DNA of 64,000 nt from a virus (lineage: Duplodnaviria; Heunggongvirae; Uroviricota; Caudoviricetes). The stretch is from the IMG/VR virus record IMGVR_UViG_3300042906_000857, positions 3,297-67,296 of that record; one strand, 5' to 3'. The translations under genes and the position numbers were made by a program. How positions within the stretch are numbered: the first letter of the stretch is position 1; each line of letters opens with the position of its first letter. Shown one piece after another: positions 18,177-43,475 of the stretch. The notes under the pieces were generated by a model. That model was not told where the DNA came from and searched no databases. It was given only the letters and a program-made list of their open reading frames with translations.

Positions 18177-19634
18177 TTATGTGTTTTCCACACGAGATTT
18201 ACCATACACATCAACATCATCAATTTTATCAATAATTTCACTCAAAACTTTGATCGGTATCACTTTTCTTTGTTTTTCTTCTTCGTGTGTAAAAATTGTT
18301 CCGAAAACGTCTTGTCTTTCAAGTGGTAGAGTATCACTTTTAATTAAAGTGGGAACGTATCCACCAGTAATCATTACGATTGCCAAATTAAATAACACAA
18401 CATTGTCTGAATATGCGTTGGCACATGAAATGTCCCAGTATTTTTTATCCAAGAACATACATGAACCTTTGCATACGTGAAGTACAGGACATTCCGGACA
18501 CTCTTTACGGTTAGACCAATGTGTGACAGATTTTAATTCAACATTTTCATAATCATCAAGTGTGCCTCCGCCGTGGGATTCACCGTTATTGGAAATCTCA
18601 AGTGAACTAACATTTTGACAAGTCATAACGTTACCACGCAAATCAACTGATATGGTGTGTTCATCATCCATACCACATTTTTGTCCCAAATATTTGGAAT
18701 CACTGTGGCTTAAAATACTTCTAGTTAGACCATTAATTTTACCAAGTTGATTTACAAAACCAAGTTTACCTTGAGCTGCATATAATTCTCCGAAAGCCTG
18801 TTTTCTAAATTCAAAATGATCTTTTTTTGTAATCAGTGAACTGGAAACACCATCTTCATCATAAGCATCAACAATTGATCCTTCACCAAGAACCACATCT
18901 TCATCACCTGTTAGGTTAACAAACCAATCATAAATTGATTTTCTACTTTGATTTTTTGAATTCAACATAGAATTGAAACTAAAAGATTTACCTAAACGGC
19001 GCATCATTCTATAAAAACCTAGAATTTGTTCTTTCTTTTCTGGATCATCAAATGGATCTGGTCCACGAACTGATTGTCCTGGTCCATCATGTGATATTGC
19101 TACAGCAAAGTCCATCATCATCAACCAGTCAATAATTTCATCGGTTAAAATGGAACCATTTGTGATGATACTAAATCGAGGTTTTGTTTTCCACTCACTG
19201 AATTTTTCTGCAAGTATTTCAGCCAAAGGTTTCATTGTTTTCCAATAAACCAATGGTTCACCACCCCAAAATTCAATCTTTAAACCAACATCTTCGTCAA
19301 ACTTTAATACTTCCAATTTTTCCATAAATGCGTCAATGTCTTTTTTGGAAGTTTCTGGTTGACGTTCAACGAATTTCTGTGAACAGTAATCACACGAGTA
19401 ATTACAACTCAATCCCATCTGGATTTTAAGAATGCTAATTAATTTAGACTTCTTGAGTGGATGATCTTTATCAAAAGATTTGTGGGGGTTTTCAAATTGT
19501 TTTGGTACATCAGCAATATCTGAATACTCAAAAACATTACCATCAGCATCTTTTAAGATGTTGGCATGATTATCATAGTAAAAAACCTTCTTATCACCAT
19601 CTTCAAATCTTTGTGCTTGTATTTCAAAAATCAT
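18177..19634 (-). CDS. Radical SAM protein with a SPASM/twitch-type C-terminal Cys cluster (anSME/peptide-maturase-like) and a ~100-aa N-terminal extension
   Basis: CNYSCDYC (CxxxCxxC) at residue ~97, GGEPL-like WGGEPLV, and C-terminal CPECPVLHVCKGSC. Confidence 0.7.
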   Translation of the reverse strand: MIFEIQAQRFEDGDKKVFYYDNHANILKDADGNVFEYSDIADVPKQFENPHKSFDKDHPLKKSKLISILKIQMGLSCNYSCDYCSQKFVERQPETSKKDIDAFMEKLEVLKFDEDVGLKIEFWGGEPLVYWKTMKPLAEILAEKFSEWKTKPRFSIITNGSILTDEIIDWLMMMDFAVAISHDGPGQSVRGPDPFDDPEKKEQILGFYRMMRRLGKSFSFNSMLNSKNQSRKSIYDWFVNLTGDEDVVLGEGSIVDAYDEDGVSSSLITKKDHFEFRKQAFGELYAAQGKLGFVNQLGKINGLTRSILSHSDSKYLGQKCGMDDEHTISVDLRGNVMTCQNVSSLEISNNGESHGGGTLDDYENVELKSVTHWSNRKECPECPVLHVCKGSCMFLDKKYWDISCANAYSDNVVLFNLAIVMITGGYVPTLIKSDTLPLERQDVFGTIFTHEEEKQRKVIPIKVLSEIIDKIDDVDVYGKSRVENT

Positions 19635-19668: not shown

Positions 19669-20436
19669 TTAATAGCCTAATTCTTCACAGGCCACAATCC
19701 ATTGCTTGACCAAACTACTACGAACGATATCATCCGGAGTAAAGTAAATCTCTTGGAACGATGGCATCTTTCGTGCAACCTCAATAAAATCATGGAAGGA
19801 CGTTTGGTCCTTGTTACTCTTAATCAAGTCTGTTTGCTTAAAGTCACCAGAGAAGATAATTTTCGACCGATGACCAACACGGGTTATAATTGTATTCACT
19901 TCCGACCAATTCAGGTTCTGGTTTTCATCTACCAAAATAATGGCATCGTCAATTGAGATACCACGAATTGCAGTCGTTGAAATGAACCGAACATGACCTT
20001 GTTCTTTTAACCTATCCCACGCATCTGGTCTTCCGAATAGTGTAGCACAAATCTCTTTGTAAGGCAACTCATAAATCTCTTGTTTTTCTTCAAGATTACC
20101 AGGTAAAAAACCAACATCACGTAATTGTACCAAACTTCTTACCACAACCAATTGTTTGAATGAATTAGACTTATCTAATACTTCCTCAATGGCCTTATAC
20201 AACGCCAAAAATGTCTTACCTACACCTGGACTACCGAATAGTCCCATAAAATAGGCACCACCCTTATACATTTCGAAAAACAGTCTTTGATTCTCTGTCA
20301 GAGGTTCAAATGTTTTTAGGTGATCCAGTTTAATTCTAAGTGAATTGTTTGCTGTTCCTGTTTGATTTCTCGTTCTTACTTCTTCATCGTGCTGTTCTTG
20401 AGAATACTTCGCCGTTGTTTTTTTCGTGACCATCAA
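19669..20436 (-). CDS. phoH: PhoH-like ATPase
   Basis: Walker A GSPGVGKTFLAL and PhoH-like downstream blocks (VDENQNL, FSGD..Q.DL). Confidence 0.85.
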   Translation of the reverse strand: MMVTKKTTAKYSQEQHDEEVRTRNQTGTANNSLRIKLDHLKTFEPLTENQRLFFEMYKGGAYFMGLFGSPGVGKTFLALYKAIEEVLDKSNSFKQLVVVRSLVQLRDVGFLPGNLEEKQEIYELPYKEICATLFGRPDAWDRLKEQGHVRFISTTAIRGISIDDAIILVDENQNLNWSEVNTIITRVGHRSKIIFSGDFKQTDLIKSNKDQTSFHDFIEVARKMPSFQEIYFTPDDIVRSSLVKQWIVACEELGY

Positions 20437-20583
20437 ACTTCCCTTTTAATAACGAGGCAACACAATTAGTTTGCTTGTCCTCTTTCTTTTTGAAATTTCT
20501 TTTCTTGGGTACAGGTTTATTTACTGAGGGTTTTTGTTCATCGACACCTCTCTTTGGTAGAAATAATGCGGGTATTTGTGCCA

Positions 20584-28189: not shown

Positions 28190-29335
28190 TTAGAACGGCA
28201 CTTCGTCTATTTTGAGCGTCACACCCGCAGGCAAATCATCAGCCTTAGAATCCAACTTGGTGTACAGGTCAAGGAATGCAGTCTTGGTTTCATCATCAAA
28301 CCGTGCAACACACAATTCAATAGCCTTCATACGATCTTTGAAAATCTTAAATGCTTTTGCAATGTGGACCAAACGGCGTGTGGAGATAAGTTCATCAACA
28401 GCACCTTGTTTGAATGATTGGCGAACCACATCGGCCCATTGTACCAGATTTTCTACAAATTCAGAATCATCAATCAATGGTGTAAGAATCTTACGTTCGG
28501 TCTTGGCATCAGGATACTCCTGTTCCACAGTGATTGGAAACCGTTCCAAGAAGGCATCATCGAGAATCTGAGATAAGTAACGACCTTCTTCTGAACCACG
28601 ACCTTTGGTGTTTGCAGTAGCAATCACAGTAAATCCATTTTTTGGATAAACCATTTCACCATTCTTTTTGTTGTAGTAAGGTTTACCTTCTAAGATACCT
28701 TGCAAGCACATCAACTTATTTGAACCACGGTCAACTTCATCAATCAATAGAACAGCACCACGTTTCATTGCCGTGATTACTGGACCATCACGATTAACAA
28801 CGTTGCCATTGACGAGGGTAGGACCACCCAATAAATCAGATTCATCAGTTTCGACCGAAATGTTAACACGGATGCACTCACGTAAAAGTTCAGCGCAAAC
28901 TTGCTCAACCATAAGGGTTTTTCCATTACCAGACAAGCCAGTAATAAAGACAGGATAAAACTGACCAGACTTGATAACATTAGTAAGGTCTTTAAAAAAT
29001 CCAAATGGGACATAATCGGGGTACTTTGAAGGAATTGATGCGTCTGAATCGTCAATCAATTTAGGTTGTTTGAATGATAACACTTGAGCAGTCAATGCTA
29101 CTTCAAGTTCAGGTTCAGGTTCAGATACCTTGACCTTAGGTTTTGTGCCGATATCAGGCAATTTGTAACGGCCACGGTCAGCACGAAACTCAGATTTTGT
29201 TACAAACCAATACGGGAAAGGACAGCCAATTTCATCAGCTACGTGCTTGATACCGTCCCGTGTAAGTATTGAACCAACACCAAACAAATCTTCAGCTGCT
29301 TTGATGAAAGTTGTTTGATTCTTATTAAAACTCAT
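28190..29335 (-). CDS. cobS: CobS-like / MoxR-type AAA+ ATPase
   Basis: Walker A ITGLSGNGKTLM, Walker B AVLLIDEVDRG, and a size and architecture like phage CobS porphyrin-biosynthesis-type ATPases. Confidence 0.6.
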   Translation of the reverse strand: MSFNKNQTTFIKAAEDLFGVGSILTRDGIKHVADEIGCPFPYWFVTKSEFRADRGRYKLPDIGTKPKVKVSEPEPELEVALTAQVLSFKQPKLIDDSDASIPSKYPDYVPFGFFKDLTNVIKSGQFYPVFITGLSGNGKTLMVEQVCAELLRECIRVNISVETDESDLLGGPTLVNGNVVNRDGPVITAMKRGAVLLIDEVDRGSNKLMCLQGILEGKPYYNKKNGEMVYPKNGFTVIATANTKGRGSEEGRYLSQILDDAFLERFPITVEQEYPDAKTERKILTPLIDDSEFVENLVQWADVVRQSFKQGAVDELISTRRLVHIAKAFKIFKDRMKAIELCVARFDDETKTAFLDLYTKLDSKADDLPAGVTLKIDEVPF

Positions 29336-39212: not shown

Positions 39213-39560
39213 TTACTCCGTTCCATACATTAACAAAAAAGAATCGATAAACTCACGACCAACATCAAAAGACACATAATAGTCCCCTTGCATCCCTTGC
39301 TCCGAATAGGATATCTCAGTAGAAATACCACGCACCGATAACTCGTGCTTCAATTCATCCAAGAATAAACTGTCCGTGTATATTAGTCCATTCTCATTAA
39401 CGTCCCAATCTTGGCCATCAAAATACACGCACAACTCACCAAAGGTATTATCCTCGTTAGTATCAACCAACCGAATATCCGTAATAGTAACTGGTTTAAT
39501 CTTATTAGACCAAAGACTATCACCACACGTATTCAAAACAAAATCAACTTTCATTTCCAT
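39213..39560 (-). CDS. Hypothetical protein (115 aa)
   Basis: ORF only. Confidence 0.3.
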   Translation of the reverse strand: MEMKVDFVLNTCGDSLWSNKIKPVTITDIRLVDTNEDNTFGELCVYFDGQDWDVNENGLIYTDSLFLDELKHELSVRGISTEISYSEQGMQGDYYVSFDVGREFIDSFLLMYGTE

Positions 39561-39687
39561 AATCCCTTAAAGATAGAAGCAAAGATAATACCACCACCCA
39601 AGACCAACCAACCATCGATCTGTTCCCAACGAAAACCAATGGCCATAGAAACAATAAACAAACCAATAAAATACATTATAGAAGGCC

Positions 39688-39876
39688 TCAATTGAAATAA
39701 AAACTGTGAATATCAGTTTCCGTATTATATTTTACCGTTAGATCACCAACTGTAAACTCATCACCGTGCTGTTCAACCATATTGGCAAAATTATTCACAT
39801 CACCAAAAATATAATCCACCACATTATCCTCTGTACAGTTACCTTGATAATACTGCATATTAACAGTCCGCATCAT
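39688..39876 (-). CDS. Hypothetical protein (62 aa)
   Basis: ORF only. Confidence 0.25.
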   Translation of the reverse strand: MMRTVNMQYYQGNCTEDNVVDYIFGDVNNFANMVEQHGDEFTVGDLTVKYNTETDIHSFYFN

Positions 39877-40135
39877 AACTCATCCACTCATCGTATTCCG
39901 TTGGTTGACCGTCATCATCATAAAAATCTGATTCTATCTTGATACCACGATTATCCAGTTCCGATTGTAATTCCTCATCCGTGAAATTATCGTAACCTTT
40001 GAAACCAGTCCGTAGATAAGAATTTAATAGTTCCGCAGAATCCATATGGATGATACTATCCCAATCAATATCCACTAGAGTATCAATAACTGCTGACCTG
40101 TATTCTTCCGAATAACTAATAACTTTACCTGACAT
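39860..40135 (-). CDS. Hypothetical acidic protein (91 aa)
   Basis: ORF only. Confidence 0.3.
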   Translation of the reverse strand: MSGKVISYSEEYRSAVIDTLVDIDWDSIIHMDSAELLNSYLRTGFKGYDNFTDEELQSELDNRGIKIESDFYDDDGQPTEYDEWMSYDADC

Positions 40136-40189
40136 AAAACACCTTATAATAAGAAGAAATGAAATAAAAATTCATCATGCGTATATTGT

Positions 40190-40340
40190 CGCAAACCTTG
40201 TCGCAACCTCGATAGTACCTGAATCTAAATGAGAATCAATCGCAATAAGGCTTACCTGAACCATCGCAATTGGTCGCACCTTTGAGTAACCAATGAGTCT
40301 TAGTCTGTGGTTCCCACCGGTTTTTACCTGAAAAGTGGCC
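40190..40340. repeat. Iteron-like short direct repeats: TCGCAA x5 (TGTCGCAA x2, ATCGCAAT x2) and TACCTGAA x3
   Basis: gtcgcaaaccttgtcgcaacc...aatcgcaataagg...catcgcaattggtcgcacc, with tacctgaa at ~40217, 40253 and 40323. Confidence 0.5.
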
Positions 40341-40355
40341 GAAATTCATGGAACC

Positions 40356-40544
40356 TCAGTCTGCCTCAGAGCAATTAAAACACTTTACCTCGAAAGTGTG
40401 TATAATACCATACACTTCATCCGAGAAACCAAGGGCACACAATCGCTTTTGTTCGGACGTGACTAACTCATTAGCGAGACCATGCTTCCACACGAGCTCT
40501 GCAAAGTCTAGAAGGTCCATCGCAACTTGCTTCATTTTTCCCAT
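40356..40544 (-). CDS. First gene of the leftward early transcription unit (62 aa, CxxC-containing)
   Basis: ATG at 40544 with an AAGGAC RBS, ~20 nt downstream of the TSS predicted for promoter B. Confidence 0.35.
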   Translation of the reverse strand: MGKMKQVAMDLLDFAELVWKHGLANELVTSEQKRLCALGFSDEVYGIIHTFEVKCFNCSEAD

Positions 40545-40564
40545 AGTGTGTCCTTGTTATCAAT

Positions 40565-40632
40565 CATGCCATTATACAGGTTTCGGTCTAAATGGCAAGC
40601 CATACTTGACCGGACTGCTGGACTATTGGCCA
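40565..40632 (-). promoter_or_regulatory. Promoter B (minus strand): upstream element plus GGCTTGCCA-N16-TG-TATAAT
   Basis: The reverse complement of 40571-40632 is ccaatagtccagcagtccggtcaagtatggCTTGCCAtttagaccgaaaccTGTATAATggc. Confidence 0.55.
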
Positions 40633-40663
40633 TAAGTGTTGTTTTTTTGCATCATAAGGTGGT

Positions 40664-40730
40664 ATTGTACAGGTTCTGGCCGGAATGGCAAGCATTGATT
40701 TTATACTTGACCGGAATGCTATGGCAAGCG
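40664..40730 (-). promoter_or_regulatory. Promoters C and C2 (minus strand, tandem): TTGCCA-N16-TG-TACAAT, and TTGCCA-N17/18-TAAAAT 35 bp upstream
   Basis: The reverse complement is cttgccattccggccagaaccTGTACAATacc. A second -35 TTGCCA at 40727..40722 has TAAAAT at 40703..40698. Confidence 0.45.
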
Positions 40731-40802
40731 GGGTGTTGTTTTTCTGCAACACGGATGGCGTCACGCAGGCGCCACGTCCACCCCCTTGCTGTTCGAATGG
40801 TC

Positions 40803-40903
40803 CCATTATACACGAACCGACCGAAAAGGCAAGCCCCCCCTCCAATACCCAGCACTCCGGTCAAGAATGGTTGCCTTTTCCCCTGGTTGTGGTATAATAC
40901 ACT
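40803..40903. promoter_or_regulatory. Back-to-back divergent promoter pair D: minus-strand TTGCCT-N16-TG-TATAAT (40832..40805) and plus-strand CCAATAcCCAGCAcTCCGGTCAAGaATGG-TTGCCT-N16-TGG-TATAAT (40843..40898)
   Basis: Read directly: ...cattatacacgaaccgaccgaaaaggcaagcc ccccc tccaatacccagcactccggtcaagaatggttgccttttcccctggttgtggtataatac. Confidence 0.55.
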
Positions 40904-41002
40904 CATGCAAAACGAAAAGACAATTCTAATCACCGCCTCTGGTAAGGTTATGGTTTTCTCCGTTCGCTCCTGCGCTGTACTGTACCAGCAGGCATTCGGT
41001 GG

Positions 41003-41068
41003 TATCTTGACCGATTTGGTCAAGTATCCAGAAAACGCTTGCCAAAACCAATCGGTTCTGGTATAATA
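41003..41068 (+). promoter_or_regulatory. Plus-strand promoter TTGCCA-N17-GG-TATAAT preceded by a perfect inverted repeat CTTGACC-gattt-GGTCAAG (41006-41024)
   Basis: Read directly. It is followed by AACGAAAAGGAC, the RBS, and ATG 41098. Confidence 0.55.
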
Positions 41069-41097
41069 CACTCATATTTAAACGAAAAGGACTTTTT

Positions 41098-41397
41098 ATG
41101 ATAGTTTACACTCCCTCCGCCGCTGCTAAGGCAGTATCATTGGCCGCTGAATTGAAAGCAGAGCGTGCTGTGCTTGCTACTAGTAAGCTCTTGGTTGCTG
41201 CTCTTGCTCGTGAATTGAAAACCCAAAAGCAATTGGCTAAGGACGAAAAGCAGCATGCTCTTGTCCACCGCCGTAACGTGGCTATCGGCAAAGCTCAAGA
41301 TAAGCTTCAGAAGCTTTTGGATAAACAAAATCTGGTTGGTGCGAAAGCTAACAAAGCGAACCGTAAACCTTCCAAGGCCGTGAGCGTTACAGTATGA
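41098..41397 (+). CDS. Ala/Lys-rich coiled-coil small protein (99 aa)
   Basis: ORF with a strong promoter and RBS. Its stop overlaps the next ATG (ATGA). Confidence 0.45.
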   Translation: MIVYTPSAAAKAVSLAAELKAERAVLATSKLLVAALARELKTQKQLAKDEKQHALVHRRNVAIGKAQDKLQKLLDKQNLVGAKANKANRKPSKAVSVTV

Positions 41398-41495
41398 GCG
41401 ATATCCATGCAAAGGCCAGCGTGGCCATTTGGGTGACCTTGGCAATTGCTGTCGTGGTCTTAGGTATGGACTTATTCTTTTGGAGACCACTATGA
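41394..41495 (+). CDS. 33-aa single-TM micro-protein (MSDIHAKASVAIWVTLAIAVVVLGMDLFFWRPL), not in the track
   Basis: ATGA overlap with the upstream stop, and its own TGA overlaps the next ATG; a translationally coupled chain. Confidence 0.3.
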   Translation: MSDIHAKASVAIWVTLAIAVVVLGMDLFFWRPL

Positions 41496-41713
41496 GCATA
41501 GCTCTTCCTTTTAAGTGTATGATATTGGACAGTGAGCCAGTATTGGTGAAAAACCGATTCTCCGGTGAAGGCATTATGCTTACGCCAGAAGCGGTTGCGG
41601 TGTATGATTCTATTATGGGCGCCGAAATGATTGGTTCGTATGATATCGTCCGCAAGGGTATCGATTGGTTTAGGGCACACTTCCCGGAAGCTTACATGGT
41701 TTTGCTAGATTAG
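41492..41713 (+). CDS. Hypothetical protein (73 aa; start at MSIALPF with a GGAG RBS)
   Basis: The ORF-track start at 41429 lacks an RBS. 41492 has GGAG 7 nt upstream. Confidence 0.4.
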   Translation: MSIALPFKCMILDSEPVLVKNRFSGEGIMLTPEAVAVYDSIMGAEMIGSYDIVRKGIDWFRAHFPEAYMVLLD

Positions 41714-41715
41714 GC

Positions 41716-41788
41716 AAGCCCCAGCTAGTACTTGACCGGAGTGGTGGAGTACTGGTTGCCAAAAGCACTGCTTTCTGGTATAATACCA
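41716..41788 (+). promoter_or_regulatory. Plus-strand promoter: AGTACTTGACCGGAGTGGTGGAGTACTGG-TTGCCA-N17-TGG-TATAAT
   Basis: Read directly. It is followed by AACGAAAAGGAttcggaATG (41825). Confidence 0.55.
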
Positions 41789-41824
41789 TCATACAGTAAC
41801 AAAACGGAACGAAAAGGATTCGGA

Positions 41825-42469
41825 ATGATAAAGCTCTCAAAAACAAGCAAGCTAGACGGTGTAAAATCATGGTCACTCCAGGCTATTGAGACCTGCCCCG
41901 GTTCAATGGGTACCGATGGCCAATTGGTTGCTGCTTGTTCTGGTTGCTATGCCACCACCGGTATGTACAATTTTCCAGGCGTGAAGGCACCCCGTGCTTT
42001 CAATAAAGAGGACTGGAAGCGTGCTGATTTTGTTGCTGATTTTATCGTAGCGCTTAAAAAAGAAAAGTACTTCCGCTGGTTCGATTCTGGCGATATGTAC
42101 TCCCTGGACTTGGCGGAGAAAATGTACGCCATCATGGTTGCTACGCCTACAGTGAAGCACTGGTTGCCTACACGTATGGCTAAATTCTTAAAATTCCAGG
42201 CCATACTTGCTAAAATGCAAGCACTGCCTAACGTGATGGTCCGATTCAGCTCCGATGCTATCGATGGTACCTATACATCAAAGCATGGTAGCACAATCTT
42301 ACCTGCTACTGCTACTGTACCTGCCGGCGTGACCTTGTGCCGTGCTTATGAGCGTGGTGGTAAATGCGAATCATGCCGTGCTTGCTATGACAAATCCGTG
42401 GCAGTCATTGGTTATCCCGCTCACGGTAAGAAAATGGGCAAGGTTATTCGGTTGGCAATAGCGGCATAA
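41825..42469 (+). CDS. Cys-motif protein (214 aa), possibly Gp37/Gp68 (DUF5131)-like
   Basis: N-terminal CPGSMGTDGQLVAACSGCYATTG and C-terminal CESCRACYDKS. A W..P/TR pattern is reminiscent of DUF5131. The start was chosen by the RBS and promoter position. Confidence 0.4.
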   Translation: MIKLSKTSKLDGVKSWSLQAIETCPGSMGTDGQLVAACSGCYATTGMYNFPGVKAPRAFNKEDWKRADFVADFIVALKKEKYFRWFDSGDMYSLDLAEKMYAIMVATPTVKHWLPTRMAKFLKFQAILAKMQALPNVMVRFSSDAIDGTYTSKHGSTILPATATVPAGVTLCRAYERGGKCESCRACYDKSVAVIGYPAHGKKMGKVIRLAIAA

Positions 42470-42477
42470 TTTGGTTA

Positions 42478-42545
42478 TAATCCCCCTGAGGCTCGGCCGG
42501 ATAGGGGATTGGGACTGCTCTGCAATGGGGCAGTCCCTTTTTTTG
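42478..42545 (+). terminator. Tandem hairpins ending in an intrinsic terminator (GGGACTGC-tctgcaatgg-GCAGTCCC + TTTTTTT)
   Basis: AATCCCCC...AGGGGATT hairpin, then an 8-bp G/C stem and a T-run at 42538-42545. Confidence 0.6.
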
Positions 42546-42556
42546 CTCTGAGGTTT

Positions 42557-42735
42557 GCTGGTGGTGGCTGGTTGGTGAGCGCTGTGGTGGCATCATTAGC
42601 AATAAAAAGCCCCACCTGGTCAAACTCTTTATTCGCATTTTTTATTTTCTGGTACCTCCCAATGGATTTTCGAAAATATTAATTTTTTTCTCCTGCGGAT
42701 TTTTCGAGGTACCTCTATTTTGAGGAACCTCTATC
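42557..42735. promoter_or_regulatory. Chi octamer GCTGGTGG (42557-42564) in a GTGG-rich stretch, plus three copies of the palindrome GAGGTACCTC / GAGGAACCTC (42638-42731)
   Basis: Read directly: tttGCTGGTGGtggctggttggtg...ctGGTACCTCcc...cGAGGTACCTCtattttGAGGAACCTCtat. Confidence 0.4.
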
Positions 42736-42936
42736 TCATTCCCACTCAATTGGTATTTCACCTAATACATTCATACCACTTTCTCTACCAGCCTCAAAGG
42801 CAGCCTTCATCCATTTCATTGTGAACGCATACTTACCAAGGTCATCGGAGTTTTTCAACGCATCGAATTCTTCGTAAAATCGTTCCGACCTCATACAAAA
42901 GGATTCAGTCTCACAGAACCAATCTTCGAATATCAT
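42736..42936 (-). CDS. Hypothetical protein (66 aa)
   Basis: ORF only. Confidence 0.3.
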   Translation of the reverse strand: MIFEDWFCETESFCMRSERFYEEFDALKNSDDLGKYAFTMKWMKAAFEAGRESGMNVLGEIPIEWE

Positions 42937-43475
42937 ACAGTTTTACTTTTAATATTTTCGATGACGCTTTTTATAAGATTGATATCAGCTCGTTGTTCAT
43001 ACGATCCAATAAAGAATCCTTGAATTTTATTCAGTCCTCTCAGTTTATCTACATGAGACACATTGATATAAAAGTAAGGTGATACCAGTGTGCCTGCGTC
43101 TGCGTACGGATCACCTCTCATGAATTCATAGTGTTTACGATCTACATACTCAGTGTACTCTTTGAAGTTACCTGCAACTATGTACACATACAGGTCTGGA
43201 TTAGGTGAGTTTGTTGCGCTAGCACCACCAGAACCCACAGTGTTTAATGTGTGTTTGCCGATAGCAGTACCGGTACCTATAGACCATTGTGCGGGAGGAT
43301 TAGATGAAACACTTTGGGTTGTGTTGACACTTCGAACACCAAGTAGACTAGCCACTTTGTTAGCCTCATCGATATAATCCTGCCACGGGGTCTTACCACT
43401 TGGCCTTAGCATCGGATCAGGTTGCTTTGAAACGTTTTCGAAAACTTGGTTTGGTATGTGTGTTTTTATTGCCAT
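42933..43475 (-). CDS. Hypothetical protein (180 aa)
   Basis: ORF. A GC hairpin (GGAAGCGC x2) lies in the 5' leader at 43490-43520. Confidence 0.35.
   Translation of the reverse strand: MAIKTHIPNQVFENVSKQPDPMLRPSGKTPWQDYIDEANKVASLLGVRSVNTTQSVSSNPPAQWSIGTGTAIGKHTLNTVGSGGASATNSPNPDLYVYIVAGNFKEYTEYVDRKHYEFMRGDPYADAGTLVSPYFYINVSHVDKLRGLNKIQGFFIGSYEQRADINLIKSVIENIKSKTV

Follow-up and report, generated by a model that had tools for sequence, protein, structure and literature searches.

A promoter-rich, probably early gene cluster in a large T4-like phage from the environment encodes a GP88-family cysteine-cluster protein and three small proteins

We describe an island of four genes within 64,000 nucleotides of viral DNA (the window). 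The island is genuine, rich in promoters and probably expressed early, and belongs to a large T4-like phage from the environment. Its products are a coiled-coil protein of basic character, a conserved membrane peptide of 33 residues, a small protein with an ArdB/KlcA-like predicted fold and a GP88-family cysteine-cluster protein. It comprises known kinds of element and not a new system. Most likely the module serves host takeover or anti-defence early in infection, around a putative Fe-S enzyme. The window's instance is ordinary, yet three phage protein families that lack annotation can be seen clearly in it.

Organisation of the island

The features of the island and its upstream region are as follows.

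40871..40898, + strand: promoter P1, TTGCCT-16-TATAAT with a TG-extended -10 (consensus scan; repeat family D2)
40905..41066, + strand: orfU, a possible leaderless ORF of 53 aa with its ATG at the predicted P1 +1; gene status doubtful
41039..41067, + strand: promoter P2, TTGCCA-17-TATAAT, TG-extended, for orfA-orfB-orfC (11/12 match plus TG)
41081..41091, + strand: leader and ribosome-binding site AACGAAAAGGA, repeated exactly at 41808, ahead of gene 4
41098..41397, + strand: orfA, 99 aa (ORF reading)
41394..41495, + strand: orfB, 33 aa, single-pass membrane micro-protein (ORF reading, homologue family)
41492..41713, + strand: orfC, 73 aa, acidic (ORF reading)
41729..41743, + strand: upstream motif TACTTGACCGGAGTG, candidate site for a regulator, 13 nt ahead of the P3 -35
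41756..41784, + strand: promoter P3, TTGCCA-17-TATAAT, TG-extended, for the GP88-family gene (11/12 match plus TG)
41825..42469, + strand: gene 4, GP88 family, 214 aa (Pfam, PHROG, homologues, model)
42479..42544, + strand: double-hairpin intrinsic terminator, hairpins 42479-42510 and 42511-42537, T7 at 42538-42544

An earlier reading made from the letters alone (the sequence-only reading) had proposed the four ORFs, and all are present in the sequence where it placed them. ATGA stop/start overlaps are found at exactly 41394-41397 and 41492-41495. Such overlaps are frequent in phage operons and unremarkable alone; the proposed linkage of orfA, orfB and orfC was borne out as a translationally coupled unit.

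P1 is the first rightward promoter of a divergent promoter hub. P2 and P3 are nearly identical, the P2 unit recurring at 41756 (repeat family D3), and both are by sequence of sigma-70 type, with TG at -15/-14 and a spacing of 17 within the 16-18 nt expected between hexamers. Gene 4 has its own promoter and a tandem-hairpin terminator, both as had been suggested. However, the island's promoters are not uniquely the strongest in the window, as had been claimed, since approximately seven other sites in a whole-window scan equal or exceed them. The leader AACGAAAAGGA is conserved and lies 6 nt ahead of the orfA ATG. Copies of TACTTGACCGGAGTG, in either orientation, lie upstream of promoters 38800(-), 40598(-), 40691(-), 40832(-)/40871(+) and 41756(+), and others were found in relatives. 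The terminator (fold energy -34.2 kcal/mol, z = -2.5) consists of a G+C-rich 11-bp stem at 42511-42537 followed by T7, with the second hairpin preceding it. No Rfam families were found in 39500-43200.

Two further ORFs were considered upstream of orfA. orfU overlaps P2, its ATG lies within the CAT(A/G) start region that is conserved in the leader, and it had no homologue among the related loci. A 166/179-aa ORF over the promoter hub (40527-41066) was rejected as a gene, consisting as it does of promoter repeats on both strands.

T4-like and T5-like phages typically have small, tightly packed early genes behind strong host-type promoters. Like such sigma-70 clusters, the island lies among small genes, ends at an intrinsic terminator and combines short overlapping ORFs with several extended -10 promoters close to consensus. 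It differs in that its promoters bear an extra conserved upstream motif, TTGACCGG. Its early timing, deduced from promoter type, is plausible.

Conservation among related loci

The module was found, whole or in parts, at related loci L010, L011, L012-L020, L028, L029 and L031, of which L031 has the exact order orfA, micro-ORF, orfC, GP88. At L012, L015 and L019 the neighbour of orfA is a GP88 gene of the CX6CX3C subtype, which shares only ~23% identity with gene 4; L015 and L019 also retain the micro-ORF. At L010 and L011 the genes form a rightward block amid leftward small genes, upstream of a homologous gene of 688-720 aa. The relatives are diverged, with 45-80% protein identity (~50% amino-acid identity for orfA) and 71-76% nucleotide identity for gp88. 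No relative turned up among 50,697 phage records when the island and 12 kb of flank were compared with them by megablast.

The GP88-family protein

Gene 4 belongs to the GP88 family (PF17338; 100.3 bits, E 1.9e-28, gathering threshold 24.4 bits), the match spanning residues 15-151 and profile positions 27-168 of 230. It also matches DUF7227 (PF23872; 36.3 bits, E 5.7e-9, residues 22-207, threshold 27 bits) and PHROG 1392 (phrog_1392), which has no function assigned there. The cysteine clusters noticed in the sequence-only reading, C24-x13-C38-x2-C41-Y-A and C172-x8-C181-x2-C184-x2-C187, are present, and all seven cysteines are invariant across 46 close homologues. Over 164 GP88 members, C24, C38, C41, R84, D90, T116, N136 and S142 are 99-100% conserved. 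The Cys spacing varies within the family (CX13CX2C, CX6CX3C, CX5CX3C) and the C-terminal cluster is dispensable (105/164). The founding member, Mycobacteriophage L5 gp88, shares the three-Cys triad and the R/D/T/N/S residues with gene 4 and likewise bears a C-terminal CxxCxxC. The two are ~23% identical and differ in spacing (CX13CX2C in gene 4, CX6CX3C in L5 gp88), and gene 4 resides in a T4-like phage whereas L5 is a temperate siphovirus.

A structural model of gene 4 (pLDDT 78, pTM 0.80) predicts a partial beta/alpha barrel, with matches in BFVD; the Cys loops are a low-confidence region of the model. In a search of PDB sequences with the GP88 profile, nothing came up except a PHD finger that weakly matched the C-terminal Cys cluster. 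The literature yielded no functional paper or experiment on GP88, DUF7227 or DUF5131 proteins. The name 'gp88' in overexpression screens and other papers refers to different genes or comes without functional information, and the 'gp37' of thymidine-hypermodification papers is a kinase.

The sequence-only reading likened gene 4 to DUF5131 (PF07505, Gp37/Gp68). Membership in the strict sense did not hold, as gene 4 gave no match to PF07505 at E <= 1, but remote homology was detected by hhalign. Alignment of 164 GP88 with 82 DUF5131 sequences gave a probability of 91.1% (P 1.1e-6) over 166 collinear columns, against P 0.3-0.4 for reversed-sequence controls; an earlier alignment with small profiles had given a probability of 3.6%. 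The aligned columns include the Cys motif, C...C-x2-C-Y-A, and three further motifs, in which FRxxDSGD, PxVxHWxPTR and NVMVRFSSD pair with FVNSMSDLF, PQHTFQVLTKR and PNVWLGVS, respectively. Judged by these profiles, the resemblance is a remote but real homology. The earlier hunch was therefore close at the superfamily level, the three-Cys motif being aligned. GP88 proteins are shorter and do not have the C-terminal GGESG...FKQWG segment of DUF5131; GGESG and FKQWG are invariant in the DUF5131 alignment and absent from the 214-aa gene 4, and the hhalign match stops at DUF5131 column 234 of 383. The N-terminal DUF5131 segment I-x-W-x(5)-N-P is also missing from gene 4, and the first Cys spacing is C-x6-C-x2-C-Y-A in DUF5131 versus C-x13-C-x2-C-Y-A in gene 4, although the three cysteines align.

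Non-canonical Cys spacings exist in the radical-SAM superfamily. Gene 4 did not match Pfam Radical_SAM (PF04055), and the CX3CX2C motif is absent from it, the spacing being CX13CX2C. Aligning the GP88 and DUF5131 profiles with the phage's own radical-SAM protein gave nothing, a comparison that is uninformative with a single sequence. DUF5131 is itself listed as a radical-SAM subgroup (PMC9477430). The link of GP88 to the DUF5131/radical-SAM superfamily suggests a concrete biochemical hypothesis, testable in phages that can be cultured (L5 gp88, AM24 gp007).

Distribution and genome position of GP88 relatives

GP88 is very widespread in viruses, with 4847 homologues of gene 4 found (>4800 relatives), and its function has never been studied. 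Relatives occur in mycobacteriophages, in phages of Streptomyces, Acinetobacter, Pelagibacter and Roseobacter, and in archaeal viruses. The family is viral: one genome each of 185,579 species contained just 37 matches, mostly on short MAG contigs. Thirteen of the 22 phage records tabulated carry the GP88 relative near a record end (<=5.5 kb). Homologues of L5 gp88 were found in 390 records; in the sampled rows their distance to the right end is 2-3 kb for cluster A mycobacteriophages, and their distance to an end is 3-6 kb for the Streptomyces phages. This position near the genome ends, seen for GP88-family genes of hundreds of phages, fits early expression. With relatives at first-expressed genome ends elsewhere and sigma-70-like promoters here, the earlier description of the island as an early module is plausible.

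At 80 further GP88-like loci the neighbours vary, with orfA and the micro-ORF each present in few, all apparently lineage relatives. It may therefore be that the four genes share synteny but do not work together. Clustering of all ORFs around 90 GP88-like loci found no recurrent partner except a 52-aa downstream ORF (23 loci) and lineage-specific genes. ArdC-like neighbours were seen at 4/217 loci, which is insufficient for an argument.

The three small proteins

orfA encodes a basic (pI 10.5), Ala/Lys/Gln-rich, helical protein with the conserved core AIAKAQxKLQKLLDKQxxxVGxKAxKANRKPSK. Homologues were found in 16 related loci of the same phage lineage, and no family was matched in Pfam, PHROG or NCBIfam.

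orfB (MSDIHAKASVAIWVTLAIAVVVLGMDLFFWRPL) is ATGA-coupled on both sides, and its WRP codons, TGGAGACC, carry the GGAG ribosome-binding site of orfC. The sequence-only reading had pointed out this 33-aa membrane micro-ORF, and it proved to be a conserved peptide family with 12 members at syntenic positions. The tail motif [LMF]-D-x3-[WF]-R is conserved across the 12 related loci; an HMM made from 8 of the members recovered the remaining 4. The match of orfB to phrog_7689 is weak. Six exact-match contigs, compared for polymorphism that might reveal selection on the micro-ORF, were 100% identical over 2.6 kb. These 27-33-aa membrane peptides are a family of conserved phage micro-proteins missed by gene callers.

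orfC is an acidic 73-aa member of an undescribed family (>=299 clusters, i.e. at least that number) and ends in ...EYMVLLD-COOH. Its predicted fold, a beta-hairpin and three helices, resembles the C-terminal half of ArdB/KlcA. ArdB and KlcA were the two top fold matches among 48,164 chains, covering 67 of the 73 residues where the others cover 38-60. orfC and ArdB/KlcA share an N-x-F-x-G-E hairpin turn, and the C-terminal Asp is conserved in both the orfC family and KlcA, for which it has been described (PMC2836571). orfC is half the size of ArdB/KlcA (73 vs ~140 aa; PF03230, PDB 2wj9, 2kmg) and does not have the ArdB motif LLREYVNTL. Neither orfC nor 37 relatives matched Pfam, PF03230 included, and hhalign of orfC against 89 ArdB/KlcA sequences showed no significant similarity (P 0.11-0.58). 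On its predicted fold, orfC is a candidate ArdB/KlcA-like restriction inhibitor. The family may represent a minimal ArdB/KlcA-like anti-restriction domain, which if true would broaden a poorly understood class. PHROG searches with relatives of orfA, orfB and orfC gave nothing, and no meaningful match to the four island proteins came from PADLOC or NCBIfam.

Proposed expression and function

The best explanation is a divergent hub of early promoters in this large T4-like phage, with the island as its rightward arm. Host sigma-70 RNA polymerase would initiate at two or three strong TTGCCA-N17-TGnTATAAT promoters, so that orfA, orfB and orfC would be transcribed together and translated in a coupled manner via the ATGA overlaps, with the orfB stop region supplying the ribosome-binding site of orfC. 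Transcripts would read through into the GP88-family gene, which has its own promoter too, and end at the double hairpin. The basic helical orfA protein may bind nucleic acid, orfB would insert into the inner membrane, and orfC would inhibit host restriction in the manner of ArdB/KlcA. The GP88-family protein is most likely a metallo-enzyme. Within its partial beta/alpha barrel, the invariant C24/C38/C41 would bind an Fe-S cluster, probably of the [4Fe-4S] type, with a pocket lined by the invariant polar R84, D90, T116, N136 and S142. It may chemically modify a macromolecule (nucleic acid or host protein) at the onset of infection. Taken as a whole, we give this explanation an even chance of being right.

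Several features could be read differently. The sequence-only reading held the island to be compositionally foreign and horizontally acquired, and its G+C is indeed higher (47.5% vs 37.4% for the window), with GC3 of 0.43-0.56 against 0.31 +/- 0.06 in 45 background genes, i.e. 2-4 sd above background. Moreover, it lies on the strand opposite to its neighbours, and GP88-like genes occur in many unrelated phages, as a recently acquired foreign cassette (moron) might. However, the arrangement at L010 and L011 matches the one seen here, flanks included, and the relatives, diverged as they are, show an offset equal in kind (45-51% vs 36-41%). The promoters are of the phage's own type: elsewhere in the window their family, together with the upstream TTGACCGG motif, also serves leftward phage genes from the other strand. 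A recent acquisition is not supported, and a moron is very improbable. For orfB, it might be argued that the 33 codons are a spacer that couples translation of orfA to orfC and carries the orfC ribosome-binding site, the peptide itself being non-functional: both ends overlap the neighbours, the W-R codons are TGG AGR (with GGAG) in 10 of the 12 members, and the ribosome-binding site of orfB itself is weak. Yet the length, the one hydrophobic span, the invariant Asp and the D-x3-W-R motif persist despite nucleotide divergence. They are kept where no gene directly follows (L014, L020, L028), and likewise at L010, L016 and L028, whose micro-ORFs are located differently within the island and come with a ribosome-binding site of their own. 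A mere spacer is improbable, and a functional peptide is the preferred reading.

The functional assignments of orfC and gene 4 leave more room. orfC could be unrelated to ArdB/KlcA, its hairpin and three-helix fold being convergent and its role another one, such as binding a host regulator. The rank and coverage of the two ArdB/KlcA fold matches, the common hairpin turn and the Asp conserved at both C-termini argue against this, but we would still grant it about half the weight. Gene 4, in turn, could encode a non-radical metalloprotein, whose cysteines hold a structural zinc or a redox-inert cluster within a TIM-like barrel and which acts as a hydrolase, nuclease or nucleic-acid binder. The radical-SAM signature is three Cys ligands with an open iron site, and the near-invariance of the three N-terminal cysteines corresponds to it; the C..C-Y-A motif aligns with that of DUF5131, a family of the radical-SAM superfamily, and the C-terminal cluster is the dispensable one. 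A non-radical protein is therefore somewhat unlikely, and a metallo-enzyme with an Fe-S cluster on the N-terminal triad is preferred.

A more far-reaching idea is that GP88 is an unrecognised branch of DUF5131/radical-SAM proteins, expressed first in phages and archaeal viruses and using radical chemistry on DNA, RNA or a protein to disarm defence or reprogramme the host. Here it would form one anti-defence operon with the membrane micro-peptide and the ArdB-like half-domain protein. We consider this speculative and unlikely in its entirety.

An Fe-S context for gene 4 exists in the same phage, which has genes for NifU- and IscA-like proteins and for a canonical radical-SAM protein.

Organisation of the island and its promoters

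The region 40800-42800 was read directly and its ORFs were listed. This returned the four rightward ORFs of the sequence-only reading and both of its ATGA stop/start overlaps (41394-41397 for orfA/orfB and 41492-41495 for orfB/orfC), as well as the separate promoter and tandem-hairpin terminator of gene 4; taken as a whole, that observation was real and well described.

Features of the island and the adjoining promoter hub (window coordinates)
40598, 40691, 40727 (uncertain) and 40832, - strand: leftward sigma-70-like hub promoters, three or four in number
40871-40898, + strand: P1, sigma-70-like hub promoter, weaker third promoter unit (consensus scan)
41039-41067, + strand: P2, sigma-70-like hub promoter before orfA, TTGCCA-17-TATAAT with TG extension (consensus scan)
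41098-41397, + strand: orfA, 99 aa
41394-41495, + strand: orfB, micro-ORF, 33 aa
41492-41713, + strand: orfC, 73 aa
41756-41784, + strand: P3, promoter before gene 4, TTGCCA-17-TATAAT with TG extension (consensus scan)
41825-42469, + strand: gene 4, 214 aa
42479-42510 and 42511-42537, + strand: double hairpin with T7 run 3' of gene 4 (fold energy -34.2 kcal/mol, z = -2.5)

A repeat finder revealed the three rightward promoter units to be copies of one 50-nt promoter-leader unit, reaching the RBS AACGAAAAGGA. These promoters had been called the strongest in the window; a whole-window scan places them among the best, but about seven other sites are equal or better. The TTGCCA-N17-TGnTATAAT family is also found before leftward genes (38800, 35982, 30416, 29390, 28167). 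A further promoter-like site (TTGGCA-18-TATAAT, 11/12) lies at 42452-42481 (+), within the 3' end of gene 4 and abutting the double hairpin. Its transcript would be ~55 nt, the terminator hairpins alone, and the site is probably due to chance.

At 40545-41097 lies a 550-bp divergent promoter hub, of which the island is the rightward arm. The hub is built from ~100-nt repeats and no convincing gene was found in it; a 166-aa ORF called there on some contigs is probably spurious. An ATG at the predicted P1 transcription start opens a 53-codon ORF (40905-41066, +), for which no homologues were found. Comparable 'TATAAT-N6/7-ATG' layouts occur in the related metagenomic loci L011 (1252) and L031, there with the ATG in frame with the downstream gene; the ATG at P1 may be a leaderless start or merely a conserved CAT(A/G) start region. 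Moreover, a motif, (T)ACTTGACCGG / CCGGTCAAGTA, lies in either orientation ~10-30 bp upstream of the -35 element of several TTGCCA-type promoters (14987, 38808, 40606, 40707, 40864(-) and 41732), with further copies in L010, L011 and L031. One copy is common to the divergent pair 40832(-)/40871(+), and the motif is kept before the island promoters of relatives (TAGTTGACCGGT). On sequence grounds it is a candidate regulator binding site.

Gene 4 belongs to the GP88 family

Gene 4 had been read as possibly DUF5131-like (PF07505, the phage Gp37/Gp68 family). Against Pfam, 41825-42469 matched neither DUF5131 nor Radical_SAM at E <= 1; the hits were instead GP88 (PF17338; E 1.9e-28, 100 bits) and DUF7227 (E 5.7e-9), and the family assignment is corrected to GP88/DUF7227. 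The family founder, gp88 of mycobacteriophage L5, gave a full-length model match (E 1.4e-56). None of the 4847 GP88 relatives in a large protein database carries a functional name. Homologues were found in deposited phages of Acinetobacter (AM24 gp007, 50%), Pelagibacter, Roseobacter, Caulobacter and Streptomyces, with archaeal viruses among further matches in BFVD. Bacterial and archaeal genomes, one for each of 185,579 species, held only 37 matches, most on short MAG contigs, which marks the family as essentially viral.

Across 164 diverse members, C24, C38, C41, R84, D90, T116, N136 and S142 are 99-100% conserved. The Cys triad is spaced CX13CX2C in 85, CX6CX3C in 55 and CX5CX3C in 14, and a second cluster, C-x8-C-x2-C-x2-C, occurs in 105/164. 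In the AlphaFold model (pLDDT 78, pTM 0.80; core >90, Cys loops low) strands and helices are predicted to alternate in a partial-barrel-like arrangement. Fold comparison gave similar scores for radical-SAM enzymes (LipA 6.0, QueE 6.0, MiaB 5.8, PFL-AE 5.5, SPL 5.2), for amidohydrolase and GH18 barrels and for STAS domains; in BFVD the GP88 family itself ranked first and radical-SAM proteins next.

For comparison we retrieved genuine DUF5131 members, among them Che9c gp68 and the 'Gp37/Gp68 family protein' of PhiCh1; their motif is C-x6-C-x2-C-Y-A. An initial profile-profile comparison (10 vs 6 sequences) gave a probability of only 3.6%. With 164 GP88 and 82 DUF5131 sequences taken from viral contigs, hhalign gave 91.1% (P 1.1e-6, 166 columns), and reversed-sequence controls gave P 0.3-0.4. 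In this collinear alignment the three-Cys motifs of the two families fall opposite one another, and so do FRxxDSGD and FVNSMSDLF, PxVxHWxPTR and PQHTFQVLTKR, and NVMVRFSSD and PNVWLGVS. GP88 proteins are without the C-terminal GGESG...FKQWG part of DUF5131. Therefore, what survives of the DUF5131 suggestion is remote homology, and profile comparison makes gene 4 a remote relative outside DUF5131 itself. DUF5131 is included in a list of radical-SAM subgroups (PMC9477430). No functional study of GP88 or DUF5131 was found in the searchable literature.

In a table of deposited phages, the gene 4 homologue lies <=5.5 kb from a record end in 13/22 records. A homologue of L5 gp88 is held by 390 records; among the rows sampled, cluster A mycobacteriophages have it 2-3 kb from their right end and Streptomyces phages 3-6 kb from an end, most records of the latter with a second copy. 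Early leftward transcription in L5 begins at the right end. ArdC-like anti-restriction genes adjoin GP88 homologues in 4/217 loci, one chromosomal copy adjoins an ABC-3C defence component and another is near an integrase, which fits 'leading-region' anti-defence neighbourhoods weakly.

The small ORFs

The small ORFs differ in conservation: orfA was found in 16 related loci and orfB in 12, but orfC in only one relative's island (L031, in the window's order), being missing from most. The orfA product is basic (pI 10.5), with a conserved core, AIAKAQxKLQKLLDKQ...KANRKPSK. The window copy is without the C-terminal tail YGAEDNAIAxAIMAKK... of longer relatives (108-126 aa; L010, L011, L014-L020), and the micro-ORF begins where this tail would start.

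Members of the orfB family are 27-33-aa peptides, each with a polar start, a single hydrophobic span and a tail [LMF]-D-x3-[WF]-R. An HMM from eight members independently recovered four more (L016, L028, L029, L031; E 5e-6 to 5e-4). In 10/12 members W-R is encoded by TGG AGR, and these codons therefore double as a GGAG RBS for the next gene. The motif is also kept where no gene directly follows (L014, L020, L028) and in peptides preceded by an RBS of their own. As first read, orfB is a real peptide gene. Between orfA and GP88, relatives' islands hold another conserved family of micro-ORFs (40-42 aa, M.IL.G....GAY.HAAVIPAV..., hydrophobic N-terminus; L012 3899-4021, L014 2292-2420, L015 3788-3910), which is not in the window.

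The orfC family is large and undescribed, with 299 representative clusters at E <= 1e-3 and 67 at <= 1e-10, and no match in Pfam or PHROG. Its consensus, NxFSGES..L.P.AVAVYD.I.GAE...GLxWFxKxxPxEYMVLLD, runs to the C-terminus, and one homologue sits in a phage recombination/early region. The model, a confident one (pLDDT 94.4), predicts a beta-hairpin followed by three helices. The C-terminal half of KlcA is a hairpin plus three-helix bundle whose terminal Asp lies within a conserved patch (PMC2836571), and an N-x-F-x-G-E turn is common to both families. Sequence profiles gave no significant support (P 0.11-0.58), and the modelled likeness to KlcA is a lead, short of family membership.

History and proposed mechanism

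The island had been called compositionally foreign and had looked horizontally acquired. Its composition does stand apart (G+C 47.5% vs 37.4% in the window; GC3 0.43-0.56 vs 0.31 +/- 0.06 in 45 other genes), but the G+C offset is repeated in eight related loci (45-51% vs 36-41%). In L010 and L011, whose flanks are readable, the island is likewise a rightward block amid leftward small genes, upstream of a homologous 688-720-aa gene. Relatives are well diverged (orfA ~50% amino-acid identity, gp88 71-76% nucleotide identity), and L012, L015 and L019 keep orfA beside a GP88 of the CX6CX3C subtype that is only ~23% identical, L015 and L019 also keeping the micro-ORF. The block is therefore old in the lineage and horizontal acquisition is dropped; the island's composition is a maintained property and does not record a recent transfer. 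Beyond this lineage the neighbours of GP88-like genes vary, and co-function of the four genes is only proposed. Downstream of its GP88 gene, L010 encodes an 80-aa protein (6652-6894) with a weak sigma-70 region-4 / HTH match (E 3e-4), possibly a small transcription factor belonging to the island.

We propose that the host polymerase would start at P1 to P3, that orfA, orfB and orfC would be translated as a coupled train, and that GP88 would come from read-through transcripts and its own promoter, the unit ending at the double hairpin. In GP88 the Cys triad most likely ligates an Fe-S cluster, and early in infection the protein might carry out a SAM-dependent (radical) modification or a related one. 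Type I restriction may be weakened by orfC; orfB is a membrane peptide and orfA a basic helical protein. We regard this overall picture as evenly poised between right and wrong, and radical chemistry by GP88 in particular as less probable than that. The island genes belong to kinds already known, and the island brings three unstudied, testable phage protein families into view.

Genomic surroundings

No close relative of the window was found among deposited phages. Exact island copies come from metagenomic contigs no longer than 41.7 kb, diverged relatives from contigs of 108-177 kb. Neighbouring genes encode a T4-type RNase H, nearest (44-45%) to T4-like cyanophages and Methylophilales phage Melnitz, a SegE-like GIY-YIG endonuclease, ribonucleotide reductase, thioredoxin, and NifU- and IscA-like proteins. 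The NifU_N-like and IscA-like (Fe-S_biosyn) genes adjoin those for thioredoxin and ribonucleotide reductase (window ~51.6-52.3 kb (-), corresponding to 19798-20511 of the related locus L004); a phage-borne Fe-S assembly scaffold suits a genome encoding several Fe-S proteins. A canonical radical-SAM protein is encoded at 18177-19634 (-) (PF04055, E 4.6e-11; CNYSCDYC motif, Cys-rich C-terminal part); it has no sequence relationship to the GP88-family gene. Lastly, a MoxR/CbbQ-type AAA+ ATPase (AAA_5 and CbbQ_C), unusual for a phage early region, is encoded at 28190-29335 (-).
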